A stretch of DNA of 64,000 bases from Psilocybe cubensis (taxonomy: Eukaryota): positions 1,302,001 through 1,366,000 of the forward strand of contig CM038999.1 of NCBI GenBank assembly GCA_017499595.2, written 5' to 3'. The notes under the pieces are model-generated. The model was not told where the DNA came from. It saw nothing but the letters and a program-made list of their open reading frames with translations, and did no database searches. The first letter of the stretch is position 1; every line of letters begins with the position of its first letter. The position numbers were made by a program, and so were the translations under genes. Shown here in pieces: positions 1-41,478 of this stretch.

Positions 1-620
1 TGGCCGCATCGCACCACCAGCCTTTTAAATCGTGAGGGGTATGCTTTGGCATTTTGAAATCGAGGGCAGGAAAACAGCCCCTTGGCGATTCTTTTCTCCT
101 AGCCACGTTTTGGTAGTGTGCTGGGATGAGTGCGCCTAGGACGACATCGAAAACTAACGAACAAGCAACAGTGATGTATGTGGCTAACAGAGATCGCATA
201 GAGGTTTGTTTCTCAAGAGGGTTAAGAATCTAGTAATATATATATCAGGTGGGAAGGGGTTGTTGTGGTTTTGTCTGTGGCAGGACAAGTGGTAGGCAGA
301 CTCTTCTTTTTGGGACGTGACGGTCCGACCTGTGTCGTTCTGTCTGTCCAAAATACACAGAGTTAGGCCCTAAATATACGGTTTCAAGACCGAGAAGTCG
401 CGAACCGTCATAGTTGTAAATTGGTCCACCAGCCCCCAAGATTGCATATTAGACGAAACTAACTCATGACTATTACTTATTGAAATGAAAGGAGAGGAAA
501 CCATCTGTTTGACGTCAGAACAGAAACGTTTATAAGGAATGTACTGAAAACTTACCATATATACTTTATCACATAAGAATAGTACATTAGTTACTCATGC
601 AAAGATTACAGTACCAGCCT

Positions 621-3600
621 TCAAATGTCAAGGATTAGCCCAAGTGGCAGCATGGTGTGGCCTTTCAGTGCCACCTCTTCCCATGAATGCGTAGAAAGCT
701 AAAACCATCGTTTGACATTAGTGCTACGCATATCAGACAGGTAAAACTGTAACGCACATGGTAGGCCGCCTTGGATGAATGTATCACGTTCATGTGATCA
801 GGTATTTCGCCATCGTTCTGAACGCAAACAAGTTGTTTAGCCAATCTGCCTGGTAGAAGGCAAGACAAAAATACACACCATCCAGGCTTCGTCCAAGTCA
901 CGAATGCCCAACCGCAGGTCAAGAGGTATCTGTGACGGTAAAACGAGCACGTGGACCGTAGGAACATATGGTCTGGAAGATGCTGCTTCCATTGACAACT
1001 TCTTCAAGTTCGACACATAGTCAGAATATGACAGAATCGGACAGACAAAGCATTTTTACCATCACAAGGTCCAAAGCGAATTTTATGGACCTTCTATCAC
1101 TTCGAGCTTCTTTGCCAACCACAAGGTAAAACTCCCATATACAGTTGACAATGTAGATCGATTTCTGAAGTTCCTGTTCCATCGAAATGAACGGTACAGC
1201 AATCAACTATCAGGAAAGGTCAGCTCGCGGAGTTGAGAGCAGTAAAGAAGTGTTTACTGGGCAGCCCTTTCCATTAGTGTCAAGTCTCCACACAGAGGGG
1301 TCAATGATAGCGGAGGTGGTTCGCCACTGCCAGTAATCAGCTTTGGCGAAGTCATTGTCCCCGAGGATCATCCAGAACATTTCATCATTATCATCTTCTC
1401 CTTCCAGTAGCACAATCGGGAGCACAAGGTCCTTTGAAAACGTTTCGACGTATTTCAGCGCCGCATCTCGTTCCGGTTGAGTCGAACCACGTCCGTGCCA
1501 TACATAGATAGAGCCCAGAAGAGTAAAGCAATAGCTGAAGGCAGAGCAAAGATTGTGGACGTTCTGAAGAAGATCAAATATTGAATCTGGATGGCAGGAC
1601 AGTAAAGAAAGAACAAATTGATGAAACTTACCAAATCATGCTCATCAATCACTATATTCCCTCCGCAAGATCTCACGAGGTGCATAGTTGTATTGTCAGA
1701 GGTCCAATGAGTCCGGGTACCCTAAGAATACGAAATTAGAGAAAAGCAAGATAACTTGCAACAACACGAACCTGGCGAACGGCTAGTTGTCCTCCCAAGA
1801 TTTCTATGAACTCAGGAGGTTCAGCCAATTGTTGAATAATTTTCTGAAGCAAACGTTAGTAAGGTGTTTTGCAAGAAAATTAGTTGAGATACCGCAGTCG
1901 TTCCGTATCGTGTTGCCAATTCTTGGAGCTTTTTTTCTTCCCTATCCCCGAGGATACTTTTCCTCCCTAACCAACACCAAACAGATGTCGATGCCAGGCC
2001 ACTCGACTTCGACTTAGTGCGATGAATAATGACAAGTATCTCAGTTTCATAAAAAATGTCCAACGATCTTGTCAGTGCAGTCGCCGTCGCTCCCGTTAGG
2101 GCCAGAATTTCCAGGGATACTTTTTGTTCATCTGGCTTCAAGGCAGGGGTTCGAGTTGCAGGTTTTGTAAACTTGGCAAAATCAATGCGAGGCAATGGTA
2201 TTTCATCATGTTCTGGCCCATGCATGAAGACGTCAGAAAGGTCGATGATATCTAAAACGTTGTACTTACCGTAGGGGGTGAGAAGTGTTGGTGATTTAGG
2301 TGTTGGTGATGTTGACCGCATATCCAGAGGACTCACATCGGGCACAGTAACACATTTGACATCTTCGCGGTCGATTTTCACCTCGGGGACGGCGACAAAT
2401 TCAACGTCTGGCTCATGATCAATTTTCACTTGGGCACGGGTGAGAGTTCCAGCGGGAGATGGGGCAGGAGTAGCCTCTTCTTTCAACGAAGGCAAGACAA
2501 TGGCAGAATATTTCTCATAGCTAGATTTACGTTTCTCTGCTTGAATTTGTGATAGATTTCGAGGCTTTGGAACTTCCGTCACCATCTGTTCCAGTTCCAA
2601 AATGGGCTTAGAGAGGCTCGAATCAAATTCAACATTGCTGGGCATCGGGTTCAGGGTAGGGTGGTCAAGAAGAGCCTGAGCTACTTCCATAACGGTTGCA
2701 CGACTGCCGGTACTTGGAATTCGGGTATGTTTTGCAGGAGATGAGGGAGAAGATGGAACAAAAGATTTTGAGGGAATAGAAAATTCCGGCGCTTTGGGAG
2801 AGCTAAGCTCCAATACTAATTGCCTTTCTGCGGGTCCATTGTCAACGTGATGGTTTTTTTCAACGTTCGAAATTGGTGTTATGAATAGGTCGTAGTTTCG
2901 TGATTGCTCGTTATGCAGGCTGACACCTTTGTTTGAATGAGATGAACGGTCCCGTTGTTCCTGTAAGAGACTACTATTGTCATGATATGGCCGAGTCTGC
3001 TTCTGTTCAGTTATTTCATGGTCATCGTGCCCTTTTGTCTCTTGTATAAAATTGCTGACGGCAGGCTCATCAGTAGGCTCATTACGAGGCTCTCCGTACT
3101 TCCGAGGTTTCCTAGCTCTACCTTTTGTCGGCTGTCACACAACGATGCAAAAGTTAAGAATAACAGATAGATAATAGGTGCAAAAGATAGATTTTGAATG
3201 AAATTACAAAAGATAAGACAAGACATGGATGTGAGTATATGCCGACGTAGGTATCACCAGGATTAACGCACATGGATCAAAGGCTTCTTCGACGAAGTTA
3301 AGGCCTCAGCAGATGCATTTTGATCGCTATCGGGCACAGGATTTCGCCAAGAATTGCGCTTTACTCCCAGTTCATCTACATGCGGTAACTGTGTTAAGTC
3401 GCTTGAAGATTTAGTAGGTTTAATGAGAACCATGGTAGTCGCGGAGCCCAGCCCAGGCGTGCGAGATCGGGGGTATAAGTCAGATGCCTCAGCAGGCTCC
3501 TGAGCCAAAGGAACAGAGGTCGTAGTGTTCGCCTTTGGCAAAAACGGTAAAGAAGCCACTGGCTTGATCGTATGGGCTATAGGAGGCTTTGTGGCTTGTG

Positions 3601-6100
3601 GTGTATCATGAATATTTTCATTGGATTCGTAAGTTGTTGATTTCCTGTTTGAGCTTGGATATGGAGGAAAAGATGGTTTGGTAGGAGAACTTGACTGAAT
3701 GTTCGGTTGCCAGCGATCAAGTACAGAACCTTTTCGTCCACTCGCACTCAGTGGCCGCACTTTTTCGGCAGACGGGGAAGGTGTCGGCAAGGCTTCTTGT
3801 TGAGAATTGGCTTTGACCATATTTTGGACAAACCCGCGACCTTGCAGCCTACTGATACTTGGAGTCAGATCCTTTTGAACGGGGGGCTTTTGAAACGCTG
3901 GAGAGGCATTCAATGTAGTGGAGATAAAAGGTGACAAAGGAGAGGACTTGGGTATAGGTTCAATATGCCGCGATAAAGATGCAGAAGACGCAGAAGACGA
4001 ATAAGACGGAGATGCAGGAATAGAAGATTTGCGGTTATTGATGTAAGATGGGCCAGATATCGTACGGTCTCTGGCAGGAGTAGAGAGAACCTCCTTAGTA
4101 GGGGATTGTCTACTAGTCATTTTGTTAGAGGATGACCACTCGCTCGAAGACGAGAACGTGTTTGGTACCTGAGCACTAGGCGCACTTGTGGTCCTTTCTC
4201 GGTTCCCTGTCTTCTGAGGAGAGATTGGTCGCTCTTCTGCCTTGCCAGCTCCTGACGACGAGACCGGAGGCCATGTAGGCCTCGTAGTTGAAGGACGATA
4301 GCGCTCAGAGCTTTCGCTGCCTGGAGTGTCTGATGATTTGGGAATGTTACGGTTGGTCATTCCAGGCATAGCAATACCTCCTTTCCCAAAGATTGGATGG
4401 GGTGCGCTGGTGTCATACTGTACAAATTGAGTTGGATCGTGAGCATCTTGTTGAGGGGCATGTTTATTGAGACGAATTCCAGCACCATTTCCACCCATAA
4501 AAGCTGCAAGAGATACTGCTTGAGCGCGTTCTGCGACAGATTTCCGCGGCGTGTCTAGTGCAACTAATTTATCTGGGTTGTATACATTGTTGGTTTCCAT
4601 TAAGCGGCGTAACGGAGTGTCTCCAGAGGGTGATACAACTTTTCCTCCGCTAGAGAGACCAAGTTTAGAGGCATTTTGTCCTAAATAGGATGGCAAAGGT
4701 TTGGAGGGTGTTGAAGTGTTGCTTCGCAAAGTGTCAACAGATTTTGACGGAGAGACATTTCGAACGAAAGTAGTTTCCTTCTTCGGTATATACGACGAGG
4801 AAGTCGAGGAGGATGAAATAGGTTTGGGGGGAGATCCAATATCATTCTGCTTTCCAATGAGGTTATACGGGTCAGAAGATTTAATTGGTAAGGCAGATGC
4901 TCCACGAGGTTCAGAATCTTCTTTCATGGGAGTAGACCAAGTGGACGGAGCAGAAACTTTTGACTCAAAGGAAATATTGCTGGCGGGCAACCAAGGATCA
5001 GTAGATTTGGTAGGTGACGCTGCCCTGGTTCGCGCCGTACTCGACACAAATGATGACGCCGCCGGCTTTGAAGGAGAACTCAACGAGCTTTGGCTGGACC
5101 CGAAAGTATCTGCTGGCCTTGCAGACTTTGAAATTGCATCTTGTGCAATGGGTTCTTCGGTTCTAGTGAGATAAGATGCCGATTTTGCAGAAGATAATGG
5201 CCTTGGACTAGCACCCAAGGTATAGTGATTTCGTGGTATTTCGTTTGATTTCCCTTGAAACAATTCATCTTTTCCAACCTGTTTCTGCGCTGACAGTGAG
5301 GCTGCGAATTTAGGACCAGTAGTAAGTGAGCGTTGAGGGACATCGGCAAATTCTTTCTTGGTCCCACTCTCTGCTTTATCCAACTGTACGCCAGTAAGAG
5401 AAGACGTAGACCTCTTGGAAGAGAGGGTCGAGGGACGATAACGTTCTGAGTTTTCGGAGCCAACATCGGAAGCTGATATTTTTATGCCCTTAGAAATCAT
5501 ACCCGGCATGGCAATTCCACCACGCCCAAAAACTGGGTGGGGAGCACTCAAATCAGGCTGAATAAATTGAGTGGGATCGTGGGCGTCTTGCTGAGGTGCA
5601 TGACGGTTGAGTTTGGGTCCAGTTGCCGTCCCACCAATGAAAGCTGCCAATGATACTGGTTCCGACTTTCCCGTAATTGAACGGTTGGAAGCTGGAAGTT
5701 TGTCCGGATTGTAAACTTCGTTTCGACCCATGAGTTTACGCAGAGCTGTTTCTTGATTATTTACTCTCTCTGCCGTAGATCTCAGCGGATCATTTACTGA
5801 GGTATCGTTATCCGTGGCTGTAGAAACATGAGCCCTACAAATGATAGGGGTGAAAAAAAGAAATGACATACGTATATCGGGGGTGTTGACGCGACTCGAA
5901 GCACTGTTGCCACGACTCCTTCTGAGGCGTGCTTGTCTCGCGGCAGCGATCTCTTCCTCTAGTCTCCTTTGTTCAGCTTCTTCGTCTGCATCGACTTCCT
6001 TCTGGAGAGCCTTTATCTTGTTCGTCCATTCTGCCAGACCAGTCTCCGGTTTTGGTAAATCATAAGATTTTCTTGATGAAGTAGATAGAGACGAATCCAT
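621..6100 (-). CDS. Large multi-exon protein: N-terminal coiled coil, long Ser/Pro-rich region with an internal duplicated module, C-terminal gelsolin/villin-like domains
   Basis: ORFs 3263-6100, 1821-2813, 1210-1425 and 1021-1206 join through GT-AG introns. Gelsolin-like motifs: VWCWLGRKS, AEPPEFIEILGG, YVWHGRGS...ER, EGEDDNDEMFW. The last exons (stop at 621-623) were inferred by eye. Confidence 0.75.
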
Positions 6101-6417
6101 GGTATCGATCCGGATAGTATCGGTCTAGGTATCACCAACGTAAGCGTGAACTGGAAGGCATGAACACTATTGACGTGCCATACTCCCTCGAGGACCACAT
6201 GCAGCCAAATATGGCAACACGTGATACCACGATGTTCCAACTTCCAGGCACAGCCACATGTAGTACAACTTCTGCCACAACTTTGAACTGGCATTGAAGA
6301 ACCAATGAAGAACCAACACAATTTCCAACGCGAAACAGACGAAACCCTAATTCAAAATTTTACTTCCATTATATTGTATTTAGTTGAAGTTAAGTAGTAT
6401 GACCGTAGTGCAGTAGA

Positions 6418-7930: not shown

Positions 7931-10326
7931 CCCTTGAGTCAACCGTGGCGCAACCGTGTCGGGAACGGTGAAATTTTTACCGCGCCGCATTTTGCCCCCA
8001 GCGCAAGTTCGTAACAGTTTGCATATTGGATGCTTATCAGATCCAAGAGCCTGAGGGGTCGTCACCGGAAGGGTCAACATCAAGTTTCCATTTTTTTGAC
8101 GCGTAGTGTCACATAACGTGTAAGTCACACGGGACCAGTCACATTTGGGCACCATGCGCACAGTAGTTGGGTGGATTGAGAGTAGTAGTTCCAATAACTG
8201 AAGCGAGATCACAGTTCGGGTCAGAAACCCCATGGATAGAAGATATTGCACACAAACTGTATGGTTTTTCAAGAAAACGAATAGTATTATTTATATTGTG
8301 TAGATAGATTTGAAATCACTGCGACATGCTATGGATAGGTACTATTAGTATTAGCACTAGTGTTAACAGTCAATTAACAGTAAAAGTGTGAACCAAGGTA
8401 GTAGAGAAGCTCGGGCTAATATCGCAAAATTAGATTTCCAATACAAACGATTCACCTTTGAGCGAAACGCTACGGTAATTTTCTTTTCTGTCCAGCAACA
8501 GGTTGTGTCAAAGGAACCGAGATAGATGATTTTCCAGAAACGTTTTGGTTCGAAGACAGCTGAACTCCGGCAGCTGCTGGGACCTTTGACGCACCATGCT
8601 GAATTCTGTTATTTGCACTAGATGTCGCAGCTAAGCAAAACAATTTGACACCTTTAAGGGCGAGGTCGACTTCAGGATATTGGCCACCCATAATCTTGGA
8701 GATAATATGGTCAGGACCAATGGATGCTAAGAATTCCCTTGCTTTCTTTTGTTTGTGGGCCCATTTTGAAGGTTCGATCACTGAGGGAAGTTTAGTGACT
8801 CGTAGGGTATGTGGGACTCTCGTTTTGATGGTTTGAAGTGTACACAGATCGCTGGCGTGTGCAAGTTGATGTTTGAGGTGAGTGCGACGTGGTTGAGCGA
8901 GTTGAAATTCGATGCTTTGCAGTGGCTCAGAGAAGAAATCATCCAATTTCTTACACTCTAAACAACCACAGCCCAGCTTCCTTAGGTTAACATTTGGGAA
9001 GTTGCTTTTTTGTCTAAGTATTTTGGCTAAGTATATAGCGATAAGGAGACGCATGAAGCGAGAGAAGGGTGGCCAACTCAAATCTTGTCCTTTCTTTTCT
9101 AGAAGTGTCCGAAGCCGAGGTAGCAAAGGTAAGTAAAGATCGTCAAATTTGCTGGCCATAGAGTGTTCGCCTTTAAAGGTTTGTTCAAAGAGAGGTGTAC
9201 ATACATCCAGGCCAGAGACCTGAATCGCAGTTTCGACGATATCGAGAATTCGGTCGACGTGGCTGAGCAGACGCGGATTGGGCATATAAATTGAGAAATA
9301 GTGACCAGGGTAATTGACAGTTGGGCCAGTGTTCCATTGTTCTGCAGCTGCCTGCAGACATTCATTGATAAGACGCTGAACTATCGCAGAAGCAGATTGG
9401 GCCCGAATCGGCGTTATTTGAGGAAGCGCGCTGTGTTTCCCGAGCAACAAGAGCTTGCCGTTGTAAGTGTAAAACCCGGGCAAGGGCAATACAAAAGGCA
9501 TAGTTATCTTTCCTATTTACTATGTTTGGCATCATTCTTAACAAGAATTCAATACTCAGTAATAGATCGGATAGAGATTGGCTCATAACTCACAATTCTT
9601 TGAATAAACTCACACCAACCGTGTGTATAACGCTGACAAAAGTTGGTGCCTCTTCAACCTTTAGAGATATATAGGATGACAAGACTTGGTTTGACTGGTT
9701 TGCGGACCATGTATGCACGGTATGTTGATCCTCAAGAATTGCTTTTGGAGGTACCAAGTAGATGAAATTTATCCAATCTTCCAATGAGGTTGACTGGGAA
9801 ATCAGGGTTTCGTAACTGCAGACAGGGATATCAATGAGATAATAGAAAATGGATAGGTCGTTTGTAACATACATTGCTCGTACATTCTCAAATGAAAAGG
9901 TAGCGCATGCATCGGCAAGCAAGGTCCCATTGGCAAGTGTGCATGACGGGGATTGTGCCATAGATTTCCAAATTTCCAGATCTCTCCATTTGATGGCGTA
10001 TTCAAACACCTTTGTCACTTGTTCCTTGGTGAGAGTTTCACCGCCACTTCAAATAATAAGCATGATCCACAGTCGACCGTCTGTTGTCGGTGAGACAGCA
10101 GACAACTCGTTCAACTTCTGGAACGCATACGGAATACATTCCGCAGATGTATAGGAAGAAAGAATCTTAGTGCAGGCCTGTTTACACCATGCATTGACGG
10201 CTTTTTTCTGGGGTGCGGTTTTTGCCTTGAGAGGTAAAGAGGAGATGAAGGCCATCTGTTGAGATAGCATCGTGGAACTGGCCAAGACTGCCTGGTATCT
10301 GTGAAAACTAAATGATTGGAATGTCT

Positions 10327-10331
10327 GCAGG
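10327..10331 (+). repeat. Target-site duplication GCAGG (left copy; right copy at 11915-11919)
   Basis: GCAGG lies immediately before the TGT of the 5' LTR and immediately after the ACA of the 3' LTR. Confidence 0.95.
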
Positions 10332-10608
10332 TGTCAGGGTACGTATTGGTGCCACCCCTATCCGTTATCGTTATCTGTTACGGTCCCACGCTGTCATGCC
10401 TTGTTCTATCTTTGTGTTCGGTCCCACGTCTATCGTTCTCCTGTTTCATCTATTGATAGTTGTCATATGTCGAGTACTCTGGTCCGGGAAGTAGTTACTC
10501 CGGTCTCCATGTATATATAGGGTCCTGGGGTCAGTAGTCAGATCCCAGCTTCGATATCAACTTGGTCTTTGGGCATTCTTCTCTCTTGACTTAAGTCGAT
10601 TCCTAACA
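10332..10608 (+). repeat. 5' LTR (277 bp)
   Basis: TGTCAGG...CCTAACA imperfect terminal inverted repeat; 275/277 identical to 11638-11914. Confidence 0.97.
10512..10519 (+). promoter_or_regulatory. LTR TATA box (TATATATA); predicted transcription start near 10547
   Basis: The TATA begins 35 nt upstream of the 11-mer that is complementary to the PBS. Confidence 0.6.
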
Positions 10609-10610
10609 GC

Positions 10611-10621
10611 ATATCGAAGCT
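10611..10621 (+). promoter_or_regulatory. Primer-binding site, self-priming type (ATATCGAAGCT)
   Basis: Begins 2 nt after the 5' LTR and is the exact reverse complement of AGCTTCGATAT at 10547-10557. It does not start with the TGG expected for priming by a tRNA 3' CCA end. Confidence 0.8.
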
Positions 10622-10699
10622 ACCCAACGTTGCCCTGGTACTCTATCCACTGCAGCGCTCGTCTACTCTACTCTACCTTGCCCCCACCTACTATACTCT

Positions 10700-11596
10700 A
10701 TGGCCGACCCTCCTTCGCCTTACGATGGGTTCATGACAATGTCCCTTGAGGACCGTTTCGCCCTCCTCTTTAGGGCGCAGCAAGTCCGGTTCGACGCCGA
10801 TAAAAAGGTTGACGACCGACTGTCTGCCATCGAGTCTAAACTCGAACGCCTCACGGCCTCTCTACCCAAACCGCCTGCCGCTCCCACTCCCTCTGCTCGC
10901 GCACCTCGCGCTCGACGCACCTCTAGGAAGGAACGCCCGGCTGCACCTACCTCTACCCCTACTACAGGGCCCCCGCACTCCCAATCCATCCGCTCCACTA
11001 CTACCAAAGCCGCCCTCAAGAAGATCGTCGCTACCCTGTCTATTGCGGACGAACAGGCTGGCCACGTCATAGGGCGCGCGGGAACTGGCTTACGCCAAAT
11101 CCACGACATCTCGCATGCAAAGATCTCGGTCTCCCCCGTCGTCACCTCCGGTTTGCGTGCCGTCACTATCAGGGGCACCGCTCGTGAAGTCGGTGATGCT
11201 CTCTCTGCTATCGGCAAGCGGATTGCCCGTCGTCGCATCCGCAACCCTAGGTCCAAGAAGCCTAAACAGCCTCCTGCGCCCACTGCTGCCCCTCCTACCC
11301 TCGTCGTTGAACCTCCTTCTCCTACTCCAACCTCGAGCTCTACCCCAACTACGCGGACACCCCGTTCCGGGACGGCTTCTCCGCACTCGCCCACTCCTAC
11401 GGCTGTTGACACTCGCTCCAGCCCATCCTCGTCGCTCGCCCCTGGTTTGCCTATGGAGGTGGACGCTCTCAGGGCTCCGCAGCAACACTCTGACGGTTAC
11501 TCTCGCCCCGGGCCTGTTCAGCCTAGGGAGGGAATTCAGACCGCGCGTCGTGGCGGTGGACCGCCTCGTGTCTTTGGTGCAAACCGTCCACGGTGA
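10700..11596 (+). CDS. Element-encoded 298-aa protein: N-terminal coiled coil, type I KH RNA-binding domain, basic NLS-like patch, Pro/Ser/Thr-rich tail with PMEVD and RGG-like motifs
   Basis: Intact intronless ATG-TGA ORF filling the internal region. KH signature LSIADEQAGHVIGRAGTGLRQIHDISHAKISV...RAVTIRGTAREVGDALSAI (aa ~110-175) with an intact GxxG loop (GRAG). Confidence 0.85.
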   Translation: MADPPSPYDGFMTMSLEDRFALLFRAQQVRFDADKKVDDRLSAIESKLERLTASLPKPPAAPTPSARAPRARRTSRKERPAAPTSTPTTGPPHSQSIRSTTTKAALKKIVATLSIADEQAGHVIGRAGTGLRQIHDISHAKISVSPVVTSGLRAVTIRGTAREVGDALSAIGKRIARRRIRNPRSKKPKQPPAPTAAPPTLVVEPPSPTPTSSSTPTTRTPRSGTASPHSPTPTAVDTRSSPSSSLAPGLPMEVDALRAPQQHSDGYSRPGPVQPREGIQTARRGGGPPRVFGANRPR

Positions 11597-11624
11597 AGAC
11601 CAGGTCGTTGGGACACCGACCTTT

Positions 11625-11637
11625 AGAGGGGAGGTGA
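11625..11637 (+). promoter_or_regulatory. Polypurine tract (AGAGGGGAGGTGA)
   Basis: Purine-rich tract abutting the 3' LTR; it fixes the element's orientation as +. Confidence 0.85.
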
Positions 11638-11914
11638 TGTCAGGGTACGTATTGGTGCCACCCCTATCTGTTATCGTTATCTGTTACGGTCCCACGCTGT
11701 CATGCCTTGTTCTATCTTTGTGTTCGGTCCCACGTCTATCGTTCTCCTGTTTCATCTATTGATAGTTGTCATATGTTGAGTACTCTGGTCCGGGAAGTAG
11801 TTACTCCGGTCTCCATGTATATATAGGGTCCTGGGGTCAGTAGTCAGATCCCAGCTTCGATATCAACTTGGTCTTTGGGCATTCTTCTCTCTTGACTTAA
11901 GTCGATTCCTAACA
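11638..11914 (+). repeat. 3' LTR (277 bp)
   Basis: Direct repeat of 10332-10608 with two C/T differences (11669, 11777). Confidence 0.97.
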
Positions 11915-13823
11915 GCAGGCATCAAGAGTGGCGCGAATATACATACATAGTGCATACATTTTTGAAAGAGAAAGTATCCCAAATTTGGTGCAGAAAATCA
12001 GCACCTACGACTTCAAGAGCACAAGGTTTATGTTGCACAATTTTCTCCAATATTTTGAGATCTTTCCACTTGAACGCCCGTTTGAGCAGCAGTATGGTTT
12101 GCTGTTTACTAAAAGGTCGCTGATCATTGACTAAAATATCAACCCAGCGGAGATCTTCTATGGTCGGTGTGATAGATGGTGATTCCATTAACTTGCGCAG
12201 TCCATAAGATGGACCTCCTGCCTTATACAGCACACTTTCCACTTTGTCCTGTTTAATAAAAACAAGGACGGTACGCCGATAGTCTAAAATGATTGAGCCA
12301 ATGTCGGCGCACATTTTAAAGATATCGAGAACTTACAATATTCCATCTGAAAGAAAAATTGGTATTTGCAGATAAATCAAATCAAAAGACGCTCACAGTT
12401 TCTGCCGAACTATCATAGTTGTTCTCATCAGGTGCTATATTCTCAAATGATTTCTTTGGAATAACAAAATCATCGCCGAGATTGACAGTTCCAATGGAAA
12501 GCAAAGGCACACCATCTAAGCTGACGACTTCAGTGAGCCTAGTGGTGGTGCCGGATACTGCACCCATTGTCACATCATCATCTCCGTCCTCGTCCTCGTC
12601 GTCTTCGTCTTTGTCTTCATAGCCGTAAAAATCAAAATCATAAAACCGCTGCCGCTGCCGCTTCCTTCGATAGTAGTCACAACCACCATAAATACGTTCA
12701 GCCGTGCCGGATTTTGTGTGATTCAACTTCGCCAGAATCAGCTTAAAACCCATTTCCTCTGCAACAGGGAGAATTTGAGTAGCTTTACTGCGATCCACTC
12801 CACGGAGTGAATCCATGCCCCGCTTAAGGGTTTCCATGTCGTATTGATGGTGAAGAATGCAGGCCATCATATCGTTGTCTGAGCCTTCCTGATATTTCTT
12901 GTCTTTCCAGTTCTAAATAACTTGGCAAAGAAGCATCATCGGTGACATTGAAGGTAGGATGGGATACGGTAATCCAGAAGATTGATCATGTATGAGGCTG
13001 TAAGAGAGGGCCAAGCGATATCCAGAAGTCAATGGTTTGATTGCATGCTTGACGTCAGTGTACCAGGCAACAAGGGTAGTGGATTGCAGGGAGTCTCGAG
13101 AAAGATCAACGGATTTGGTGATGGTCATATGGGAGAAAACAACCTCTCCTCCACTGTGGAAAGAAGGGAGGAGAATGGTTGCAGATGCAAACGCCCCGAT
13201 TACTCTTTGGGTACTAGCAAGAAAAAAAAAAACAAATTAACCAATCAGCTTTGGTGGAGATGAAAATGAACCCTTACTCCTGACCGGGCGTAAAACATGC
13301 CGTCCTGTTGATTTGATGGGTTTTCAGCAGCATTTCAACGAAACTTGTCGATAGACATACGTGGATCCACTGTCAAATAACAACAATTTTTGTAGTTCCA
13401 TCTTAGGAGGATGAGCTCCTATCTTTACGCCTAAGGACTTGCAGACCTCTCGAGACAGCGTGTTGTCAACGTAATTTTTCCAACCAGTGTTACCGAAGGA
13501 TACCAGACGCGAATCAATTTCCCATGTATCTCGTACAGCTTGAGGAGCGACATTGCGCTTTCCTTTCCCTGATAATGCTGGTGCAGAGCAATTAGCGATA
13601 ATGGCTCCGGCATCACGGTTGGTTAAGGGTAAACCAACAAGTCCAAGTCCAGAAATAGACATGCAAGGGTTTAAAGCGTTAGCCAGAGTAGAGGCATGAT
13701 AAAAATTGCCTTCAAAAGCCGTGTTAGCCTCATTAGTGGCCTTCCAAAGCTCGTCCTGAAATTAAGAGATATGGAAAACCAATGAAAACCGTGACGTTCA
13801 CAAAAGAAAGCGAGACAGACCCG

Positions 13824-39669: not shown

Positions 39670-41478
39670 CTAGATATCAAACCGTCGAATAACGAGCTTC
39701 CCTTTATGCGCGGTAACAATTCGTCTATCATCAAATGACACTGTTCCTTTGGTCAGTGGCAGCATAAGTTGCGCCGCTGCCTCATCAGCTCCAGCAACCT
39801 CAGCGCCAGTCCCTGCTTCGAGATCCCAAACCCAGATGCTTCCATTCTGCCCAAGACTGACGCAACGCCCATCTGAAAGAGCAAGTGATGACACGGGGCT
39901 GGTTTGACCGTGCAATGTGCGAACGAAATTTAATTTCGGTGGAGATGCTGCAATGGAGTTGGACTGAATTGGAAGGACTAGTCTGTAAAGTTGTAGACTC
40001 GTTGGAGAATGTAGCGCTGACGCAGAAGAAGCTGACGATGAAGAATCTAATGAAGAGTGGAAAGATGGAATGCGTTGATGTCCATAAATGGGATAGACGC
40101 TTGTCCCCGGGGCAAGGACAACCCATTTCCCATCCGTTTGAGCATCTGCAACATTGAGCAACTTGCGCCCCCACTGTTCCCTCATTGCACGAAGTGTACT
40201 ATCATTAACCCAACTCGATGGCATATCAAAAGCGCGGATCGTTCGACTTGTTATCACAGACATGGTCGAGGTCAAGGGATATTTATAATCTTCACGAAAT
40301 GAAGGCGAAGAGAATACTGTCGGAGTTGTCCTACCGCTGGCGGAAGCAGTTTCCGAGTGGTTAGATATGATGAGTTCCGTTGCACCGACAGACCAGTGCC
40401 TTGGATAGACAGGAACTGAATAGGTAATGACAAGTTTAAAGTTTCCTGGAGATGGCGAAGATAGGACAAGGGATACAGGTGGATAAGATGTGAAAGTGCT
40501 GAGAGTCTGTGTGTGGCGAACCACTCCAGATGATAGATCATAGATAGAGAGTGAAAAGATGGTAGATACCGTGACAAGAAGCGGGTGATAGTATGCGGCC
40601 TGCATGATGTTCATTGTCCTCGCTGTTCTTCGAGCAGGTTGGTACACGAACTTCTTCGAAACGGTATGAGAAGGTGACGACGGGTTGAAATCGAACACAG
40701 TGAATTCGCCAGTGGAAACGAAACACGCAAGTGATAGATGTCCAGTTGTAGGAGGAGATTGATCTAGAGCTAGTGCGGTGATACAAACTGGTAAGCGGTG
40801 GGAGTCTTGCTGATCATAGTAGGGAATAACATAGCGAGAAGTGGTCTGGCTGCTAAGGATCACCGAAGGATGTGATGTTGGCTCTGATGATGCAAAAATA
40901 ATCATAGTTCCTGCTAAAATAATATGCGTCTGTTCGTGAGTCCCCTCTGGATAAATTTTTGGAGGATCGTTTGGATGCTCAGACACATTTGTGGATGACT
41001 TCTCCACGAGGCAACGTCCTGTTGGATTCCATAGTCAGATACAACAGAAGATCCAATTAATAAAGTGAAATAACGCCAACACACCGTTTCTCCAGTTCGA
41101 ACTTATACGAAACATCCATTTCCAATCTCTATTCTGATTGGGATCTACGACAGCTCGACCAGGAAGTGGTTTCACATCTCGACCATCTAAGCGGCCTATG
41201 AAACCTCTTGCGCCTCTTAGACGAGTTCTACCATAGACTTTAAGATACTGCTCTCTCCAGAGTTCATTGTCCGCGGCAAGCCGAGCCCAGTTCTTGCTTG
41301 TCGACTGAGTTACACAAAGATCCACCCAAGTCAGATGCGAGAATATGCACAATATAAGTTCGTCGTATAATGAATTCTCGAAGCTGAGAACATTTCCAGG
41401 ATGATGCTTTGTCTTCCCTGATGTATGAACGCGTTTTGCAGGTGGCAGATGTGCAGGAGACAAGCTGCGTTTCGTCAT
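39670..41478 (-). CDS. F-box protein with C-terminal WD40-like beta-propeller
   Basis: F-box SLYDELILCIFSHL...VTQSTSKNWARLAADNELWR; C-terminal TLHGQTSPVSSLALSDGRCVSLGQNGSIWVWDL; 2 exons. Confidence 0.85.

Follow-up and report, generated by a model that had tools for sequence, protein, structure and literature searches.

We analyzed a 64,000-nt stretch of Psilocybe cubensis contig CM038999.1 (positions 1,302,001 to 1,366,000 of assembly GCA_017499595.2; hereafter the window, numbered from its first letter), in which a compact long terminal repeat (LTR) retroelement occupies positions 10332–11914. Its only open reading frame (ORF) encodes a protein with an N-terminal helix and a KH domain. The parts of the element and its target-site duplication (TSD), with its primer-binding site (PBS) and its polypurine tract (PPT) among them, are as follows.

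10327–10331 (+): 5′ TSD, GCAGG; repeated at 11915–11919, the two copies lying directly outside both LTRs
10332–10608 (+): 5′ LTR, 277 bp, TGT...ACA ends, direct repeat; U3 at about 10332–10546, R-U5 from about 10547
10512–10519 (+): TATA box TATATATA in U3, 35 nt upstream of the self-primer; putative promoter element
10547–10557 (+): self-primer AGCTTCGATAT, perfect complement of 10611–10621; probable 5′ end of the transcript (start of R)
10611–10621 (+): PBS ATATCGAAGCT, self-priming type, 2 nt past the end of the 5′ LTR
10622–10699 (+): C-rich, G-poor leader (composition of 10623–10699: C 0.43, G 0.12)
10700–11596 (+): intronless ORF, 298 aa (coordinates include the stop codon); predicted coiled-coil helix, linker, KH domain, basic disordered tail
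10745–10858 (+): long N-terminal helix, residues 16–53; modeled as a parallel coiled coil
11024–11227 (+): type I KH domain, residues 109–176, with GRAG loop; from Pfam KH_1, AlphaFold2, Foldseek and a profile search of the Protein Data Bank (PDB)
11625–11637 (+): PPT AGAGGGGAGGTGA, abutting the 3′ LTR
11638–11914 (+): 3′ LTR, 277 bp, direct repeat of 10332–10608
11915–11919 (+): 3′ TSD, GCAGG, matching 10327–10331

This is a young, intact, recently inserted copy of a mobile LTR retroelement, with all of the structural features by which LTR retrotransposons are recognized: TG..CA LTRs, a TSD of 4–6 bp, a PBS at the 5′ LTR and a PPT at the 3′ LTR. It measures 1583 bp from LTR to LTR, or 1306 bp for one LTR plus the interior, and a single ATG-to-stop ORF fills 87% of the 1029-bp interior. 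The LTRs are identical at 275 of 277 positions; the two mismatches, at LTR positions 32 and 140, are each a C in the 5′ copy where the 3′ copy has T, a CpG to TpG change in both cases. The initial annotation of this DNA, made from the letters alone, had described the near-identical repeats with their TGT...ACA ends, the GCAGG duplication, the PPT and the one intact intronless ORF, and each of these is present at the positions listed above. The PBS that it had also reported is there as well, although not as a tRNA-type site: it complements the element's own LTR. Neither the LTR nor the interior has a second copy within the window, a tRNA scan of the window gave no tRNA gene, and an Rfam scan of 10200–12050 returned no family at E ≤ 1, hammerhead included, and hence no pol III-type small-RNA module or ribozyme.

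The type I KH domain that had been recognized in the translation is confirmed by Pfam, in which KH_1 matches residues 112–171 with 35.7 bits against a cut-off of 21.5 (E = 7.5e-9). The GxxG loop, here GRAG, is intact, and KH_1 matches 31 of the 31 family members compared. An AlphaFold2 run with an alignment of these 31 sequences gave a mean predicted local distance difference test (pLDDT) score of 62, with two confidently predicted parts at about 90 each, namely the helix at residues 16–53 and the KH domain at 109–176. The order of secondary structure in the latter (beta-alpha-alpha-beta-beta-alpha) is that required of a type I KH domain. The rest of the protein is disordered in the model and comprises a basic Pro/Thr-rich linker, a ARRRIRNPRSKK stretch and a tail with the conserved motifs SPMxVD and QTARRGG; no capsid-like fold appears in the AlphaFold2 model. 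The top Foldseek matches were KH3 of hnRNP K and KH1 and KH3 of PCBP1/2 (E between 2e-6 and 1e-5; TMt 0.81–0.91, root-mean-square deviation 1.0–1.6 Å, identity 20–33%), and a profile search of PDB sequences placed PCBP1 KH3 first (E = 3.6e-7).

Self-association of the N-terminal helix is supported by a three-copy model of residues 1–60, which forms a parallel in-register bundle with an ipSAE interface score of 0.72, compared to 0.00 for the best of three controls; runs agreed in at least 97% of contacts, and partner pLDDT was at least 82. Among proteins solved as one-chain pairs, 21 of 30 attain the ipSAE mark, compared to 0 of 23 solved as single chains; this calibration applies to two copies and is weaker in its counts for eukaryotes, and a pass may reflect memorization by the model.

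The KH element belongs to a family that extends well beyond P. cubensis. Relatives were found in Agrocybe pediades (75% protein identity), Psilocybe cf. subviscida (55% and 53%) and Dendrothele bispora (47%), with a further one in a Termitomyces species, and many contigs of 1–2 kb also carry relatives. When 1.84 billion cluster representatives were searched exhaustively with a profile, 947 matched at E ≤ 1e-3, a number that falls to 198 at ≤ 1e-10 and to 48 at ≤ 1e-30. Matches that span the whole profile are nearly all 245–405 aa in length; multi-KH cellular proteins, the nearest matches outside the family, do not enter until about E = 1e-17. The relatives P0111, P0123 and P0137, each about 770 aa long, share the N-terminal helix, the KH domain and a GKRIAxxRVPNPR motif, and extend into an extra tail (about 450 aa) whose C-terminal end is conserved; KH_1 is their sole Pfam match. 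IMG/VR viral contigs contained no relative that we could find, and all that the ESM Atlas gave was a pair of basidiomycete KH clusters, scoring 0.85 and 0.81, to be taken as leads only.

A metagenome scan yielded 13 loci with KH-element relatives (L001 to L013). Four of them have exact terminal overlaps (63–127 nt), giving units of 1254, 1375, 1520 and 1612 bp, and three (L005, L008 and L010) have LTR pairs together with flanking DNA, at spacings of 1331, 1393 and 1434 bp. The 1306-bp unit of the window copy falls within this range, and unit size is therefore conserved. Intact KH ORFs of 265–334 aa are present at 7 of the 13 loci. At 11 loci (all but L010 and L012) the PPT meets the LTR start in one common form: purines rich in G run up to (T)GA, and TGTYAGGG or TGTAAGGG comes next. 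The metagenome relatives also keep TGTCAGGG as LTR start and CCTAACA as LTR end. The layout common to the family is LTR, PBS, short C-rich leader, KH ORF, 38–50 nt that include the PPT, and LTR. In all six elements measured, the leader has a C content of 0.34–0.48 and a G content of 0.08–0.15, and the ORFs are also C-rich on the plus strand (C 0.28–0.38). These comparisons indicate that the whole architecture is conserved across lineages whose proteins are only 39–60% identical.

Several of the metagenome loci have further features. On L005, a second, inverted KH-element fragment (2163–2468, minus strand) lies downstream of the first copy; KH elements therefore cluster. On L008 (1–1919), the 5′ LTR is preceded by the 3′ untranslated region and PPT of another unit, and the two LTRs share only 81% identity. 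Either units are arrayed in tandem (LTR-interior-LTR-interior) or the assembly ran through different copies, and because a foreign PPT precedes the 5′ LTR we rejected the 81% identity as an estimate of age. A degenerate KH element on L011 is adjoined by a 450-nt A/T-rich inverted repeat (155–600, 91% complementary) and a tandem repeat (1814–2215). On L012, an ORF fragment resembling a Copia-type reverse transcriptase (RT), identified by eye, lies at 266–643, upstream of a divergent KH element.

In its priming signals the family resembles a known group. In the window copy, 10611–10621 is an 11-nt perfect complement of LTR positions 10547–10557, an extent attained by 2 of 2000 shuffles of the PBS region, and the PBS has no tRNA-type TGG start. 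According to the cited portions of two studies, Tf1, Tf2 and Tj1 pair a 5′ segment of their own mRNA with the PBS in place of a tRNA (PMC4600332; PMC2864245). A perfect primer/PBS complement of 10–13 nt, with pairing that begins 0–2 nt past the LTR end, is present in all nine KH elements that have both regions on the contig (the window copy, L001, L002, L003, L004, L005, L008, L009 and L010). L006, L007, L011 and L013 fall outside this count, as one region is lacking or the element is degenerate; apparent primer matches in L011 were dropped because they derive from its A/T-rich palindrome. The divergent L012 (39% identity), a tenth KH element, has a 9-nt pairing with a 1-nt indel in the PBS.

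We tabulated covariation for seven KH elements and for an element encoding Gag that is nested in L006 (described below), aligned on the 3′ end of the primer. Primer positions 1–10 are Watson-Crick paired in 8 of 8 elements, with two to three pair types per position and compensatory changes at every paired position, and the pairing decays past positions 11–13. TATA box-to-primer spacing is 33–35 nt in all eight. From this spacing we infer that the complement marks the true 5′ end of the RNA, with transcription starting at about 10547. On this evidence, the KH family carries the signature of self-primed reverse transcription in the style of Tf1/sushi elements.

Within P. cubensis the element is not a single copy. 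The assembly encodes 11 distinct full-length 298-aa versions in one 90%-identity cluster, which contains the window's own product (P0181), and eight further models that are truncated or merged (73, 246, 246, 275, 275, 245, 438 and 186 aa). These gene models are spread over several contigs; the window ORF is 98% identical to the annotated P. cubensis protein JR316_0011240. Copy number was estimated from the raw reads of one whole-genome sequencing run, X14, which has the same species label. Against a flank depth of about 33 (both read directions summed), interior depth was 303–480 (mean about 389, or about 12 copies), and the mid-LTR bins totaled 1380, or about 42 LTR equivalents. With more than two LTRs per interior, solo LTRs probably exist. 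Reads leaving the element numbered 430 at 10331/2, 311 at 10608/9 and 262 at 11914/5, and their consensus agreement was only 0.37–0.53, which points to many different flanks.

Among the X14 copies, 246 places are variable: C>T accounts for 127 of them, G>A for 82 and T>C for 24. The first two classes together make up 209 of the 246, much of this at CpG sites, an excess that fits methylation-driven decay of repeats in P. cubensis; at the protein level the changes include R>C/H, S>L and P>L/S. At position 11669 in the 3′ LTR, 255 of 334 reads have C, so the T of the window copy is derived.

Neutral evolution of the ORF, which the initial annotation had held out, together with a single copy, as the mark of a one-off transduction, is not what we found. 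Nei-Gojobori estimates were made for eight intact ORFs (28 pairs), of which the seven pairs with L004 were saturated and 21 were used. The ratio of nonsynonymous to synonymous substitution rates (dN/dS) was below 1 in all 21 pairs, ranging from 0.18 to 0.52 for the whole ORF and from 0.085 to 0.34 for the KH block; the least saturated pair, L005 and L008 (dS 0.37), gave 0.41 overall and 0.15 for the KH block. The best-supported 25 ORF variants in the X14 reads point the same way: 19 fall at third codon positions and 18 are synonymous, compared to an expectation of 33% for either all possible or CpG transitions in the ORF (binomial p = 8e-5), with 207 further variants of lower support in the stretch lying outside this count. 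Purifying selection has thus maintained the ORF in all parts of the family. Given both the dN/dS values and the synonymous excess, selection has acted on transposing lineages while individual insertions decay.

Pfam finds no family of gag, protease, RT, RNase H or integrase in the element, and the stop codon lies only 41 nt short of the 3′ LTR. Gag families matched 0 of the 31 family members, KH_1 being the sole family to match more than one member, and neither a word-indexed search nor the exhaustive profile search turned up fused or longer forms carrying other domains. The element's non-autonomy, and its lack of capsid and pol domains as first read from the translation, are thus upheld.

A possible kind of helper was found at L006, where a second element (1–1100, minus strand) is nested head-to-head in the KH element and truncates the KH ORF at its 5′ end. 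In the nested element, a 10-nt primer lies 33 nt past the TATA box, the LTR ends in CCCTTACA, and a PBS that complements the primer comes after a 2-nt spacer. The ORF that follows is related to Gag proteins of about 385 aa that carry Retrotrans_gag and zf-CCHC domains and reside on contigs of up to 7.6 kb. The nesting places LTR elements that bear Gag and use the same priming in the same genomes as KH elements. We infer a Gypsy-type helper, as did the initial annotation, and the Tf1/sushi-type self-priming PBS and the L006 Gag element both strengthen that assignment. In the cited parts of one study, non-autonomous LTR elements are mobilized in trans, and LTR homology to the helper is not required (PMC10886601).

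Combining these results, we consider it probable, though well short of assured, that the element in the window is a young and intact member of a non-autonomous, multi-copy LTR family of Agaricales, and that this family is self-primed, is served by a helper in trans, and encodes a KH protein that acts on the element's own RNA. Transcription would begin about 35 nt past the U3 TATA box, near 10547, and the first 11 nt or so of the RNA would fold back onto the PBS and prime the minus strand as in Tf1/sushi. Helper RNase H would then cut the folded-back 5′ end and free the primer, the PPT would prime the plus strand, and integration would yield the 5-bp duplication. An autonomous self-priming element of Ty3/Gypsy type would have to supply RT/RNase H and integrase in trans, and probably the capsid as well. 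The KH protein would most probably oligomerize and bind its own C-rich RNA, for which the C-rich leader and plus strand would, hypothetically, suit a poly(C)-type KH domain as a binding site, and so favor RNA stability and entry into the helper machinery. It could in effect be a surrogate for Gag/nucleocapsid, laid out like LINE-1 ORF1p. If the KH protein does act on its own RNA, the element would be a compact natural system, with about 1.3 kb of unique sequence, and a model for cis-preference in retrotransposon parasites, for the evolution of self-priming, and for the replacement of nucleocapsid functions by a KH domain.

Several observations weigh against this interpretation. RNA binding, target preference and oligomerization of the protein are predictions from models only. 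Although the RNA fold of 10547–10640 contains the primer-PBS helix, it is no more stable than shuffled sequence (z = -1.22), and the case for self-priming is made by covariation and not by folding energy. Of the window's 28 stop-to-stop ORFs of at least 180 aa, 10 were scanned, and none of these gave an RT or integrase match. The X14 reads show no high-agreement alternative interior after the LTR, which means that any autonomous element with these LTRs is not abundant in that strain. The L006-type Gag element fits as a candidate helper type by co-occurrence only, and hhalign found no similarity between its Gag and the KH protein (probability 0.15%, E 0.4); on that result we rejected the N-terminal helix as a homolog of the co-resident Gag. 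None of the listed runs that match the element is on record as RNA, and X16 and X17, which were guessed to be RNA, matched only 12575–12606. Finally, two residues that the family conserves are changed in the window copy (E107K and S250L), and this copy may therefore be slightly impaired.

A bolder form of the favored interpretation is that an old mushroom LTR lineage replaced Gag with a cellular-type protein, combining a coiled coil with a poly(C)-type KH domain, that coats its own RNA in cis; the element would then need only helper Pol, or would hijack particles through its ribonucleoprotein and not through a packaging signal. We offer this tentatively, as possible but less than an even prospect. 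If it were true, it would represent a convergent, ORF1p-like solution among LTR elements.

The KH protein might instead work against something, either host RNA silencing or decay, or the Gag or RNA of the helper, which it would sequester or compete with as the weapon of a parasite on a parasite. Purifying selection and retention in every family member also fit this, and the protein has neither a capsid-like fold nor similarity to the co-resident Gag. Nothing specific supports such a role, however, and the predicted coiled coil, single KH domain of poly(C) type and basic tails, together with the C-rich RNA, are more simply explained by binding of the element's own RNA; we therefore think it unlikely.

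A role in movement would be absent altogether if the ORF were a passenger, that is, a transduced host KH gene conserved for the host and dispersed as a multi-copy family. The ORF is intronless and of cellular type, its nearest matches outside the family are multi-KH cellular proteins, and the copies all bear ordinary annotations (hypothetical or KH-domain protein), all of which is compatible with such an origin. Yet the ORF goes together with cis signals that are conserved and covary between lineages of only 39–60% protein identity, and with 87% of the interior taken up by it there is no spare sequence. Single copies, moreover, decay (C>T and G>A; R>C/H and S>L; truncated models), as expected if it is the transposing lineage that is selected rather than every single locus, and we regard the passenger explanation as distinctly improbable. 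Least tenable, and largely refuted, is the idea that the 1.25–1.6-kb 'circular' contigs stem from a circular replicon outside the chromosomes or from a circular RNA like that of retrozymes, with the genomic copies as integrated forms: the exact terminal overlaps of 63–127 nt at 4 of 13 loci that suggest it are also what assemblers yield from LTR-interior-LTR units, and they cross the U3/R boundary instead of covering R alone, while L005, L008 and L010 have LTR pairs with flanking DNA and the window copy has a TSD, TG..CA ends and no hammerhead or other Rfam match at E ≤ 1.

Elsewhere in the window, a match to an F-box protein of pof12 type with a beta-propeller lies at 39670–41034 (minus strand), and two long open frames of 437 and 953 aa, measured stop to stop, lie at 1821–6124 (minus strand) and have no Pfam match at E ≤ 0.001. 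The 32 nt at 12575–12606 drew high-depth matches from unrelated contigs in runs X10, X16 and X17; this is probably a common low-complexity coding repeat, and it lies outside the element. About 19 P. cubensis gene models labeled as hypothetical or KH-domain proteins, and many more in other mushrooms, are transposon genes in light of the present results, and should be masked or re-labeled.

Descriptions of non-autonomous LTR elements generally fall into two kinds, non-coding (TRIM, LARD, retrozymes) and gag-keeping (TR-GAG, BARE2). BARE2 is reportedly a plant non-autonomous LTR retrotransposon that carries a single gag ORF. TR-GAG elements, as characterized in the cited sections, are plant non-autonomous LTR elements of less than 4 kb with PBS, PPT and TSD, a single gag ORF and no pol (PMC4350172). 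Both resemble the KH element in being short LTR elements with one ORF and no pol, and all of them therefore depend on an autonomous partner. They differ in that their ORF is Gag, whereas the KH family has gag matches in 0 of 31 members and instead a predicted coiled coil and KH domain without a capsid fold; the KH elements are also fungal, and self-primed rather than tRNA-primed. Further non-autonomous, LTR-bounded elements mobilized in trans include TRIM, LARD, Helenus/Ajax and retrozymes, but these are non-coding, whereas the KH family keeps a selected ORF; retrozymes differ in addition by their hammerhead, which the KH element lacks.

The Tf1/sushi elements (Tf1, Tf2, Tj1) share with the KH family a PBS that complements the 5′ segment of their own mRNA. 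The primer of Tf1 is 11 nt long; here it is 10–13 nt, with a 5-bp TSD. Those elements are autonomous (Gag-PR-RT-IN), whereas the KH element has no pol, and for that reason it cannot be placed in Tf1/sushi by RT phylogeny.

For the protein, the closest likenesses lie outside LTR elements. LINE-1 ORF1p is a coiled-coil trimer with an RNA recognition motif (RRM) and a C-terminal domain, and acts in cis as an RNA chaperone. By analogy, the KH protein would also combine an N-terminal coiled coil, one domain that binds single-stranded RNA and basic tails, and would be encoded by the retroelement that it possibly serves. The two differ in having RRM versus KH and in belonging to non-LTR versus LTR elements, and the likeness is analogy only, with no homology. 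PCBP1/2 and hnRNP K provide the best structural and profile matches to the KH domain, with the GxxG loop intact, but have three KH domains and no N-terminal coiled coil; C-rich binding by the protein described here is putative.

In the full-text literature we found no earlier description of a KH-domain LTR retroelement, Repbase, Dfam and paper supplements lying outside that search. The cited parts of work on fungal non-autonomous LTR elements (PMC10886601; PMC3411680) and on active transposable elements of Marasmius (PMC9674265) mention nothing similar. The family thus appears to be an undescribed one of protein-coding, non-Gag, self-priming, non-autonomous LTR elements that is widespread in Agaricales. 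Set beside the systems above, it is neither non-coding nor gag-keeping: its members retain a selected non-Gag protein of RNA-binding type, which has persisted across Agaricales together with covarying self-priming signals.

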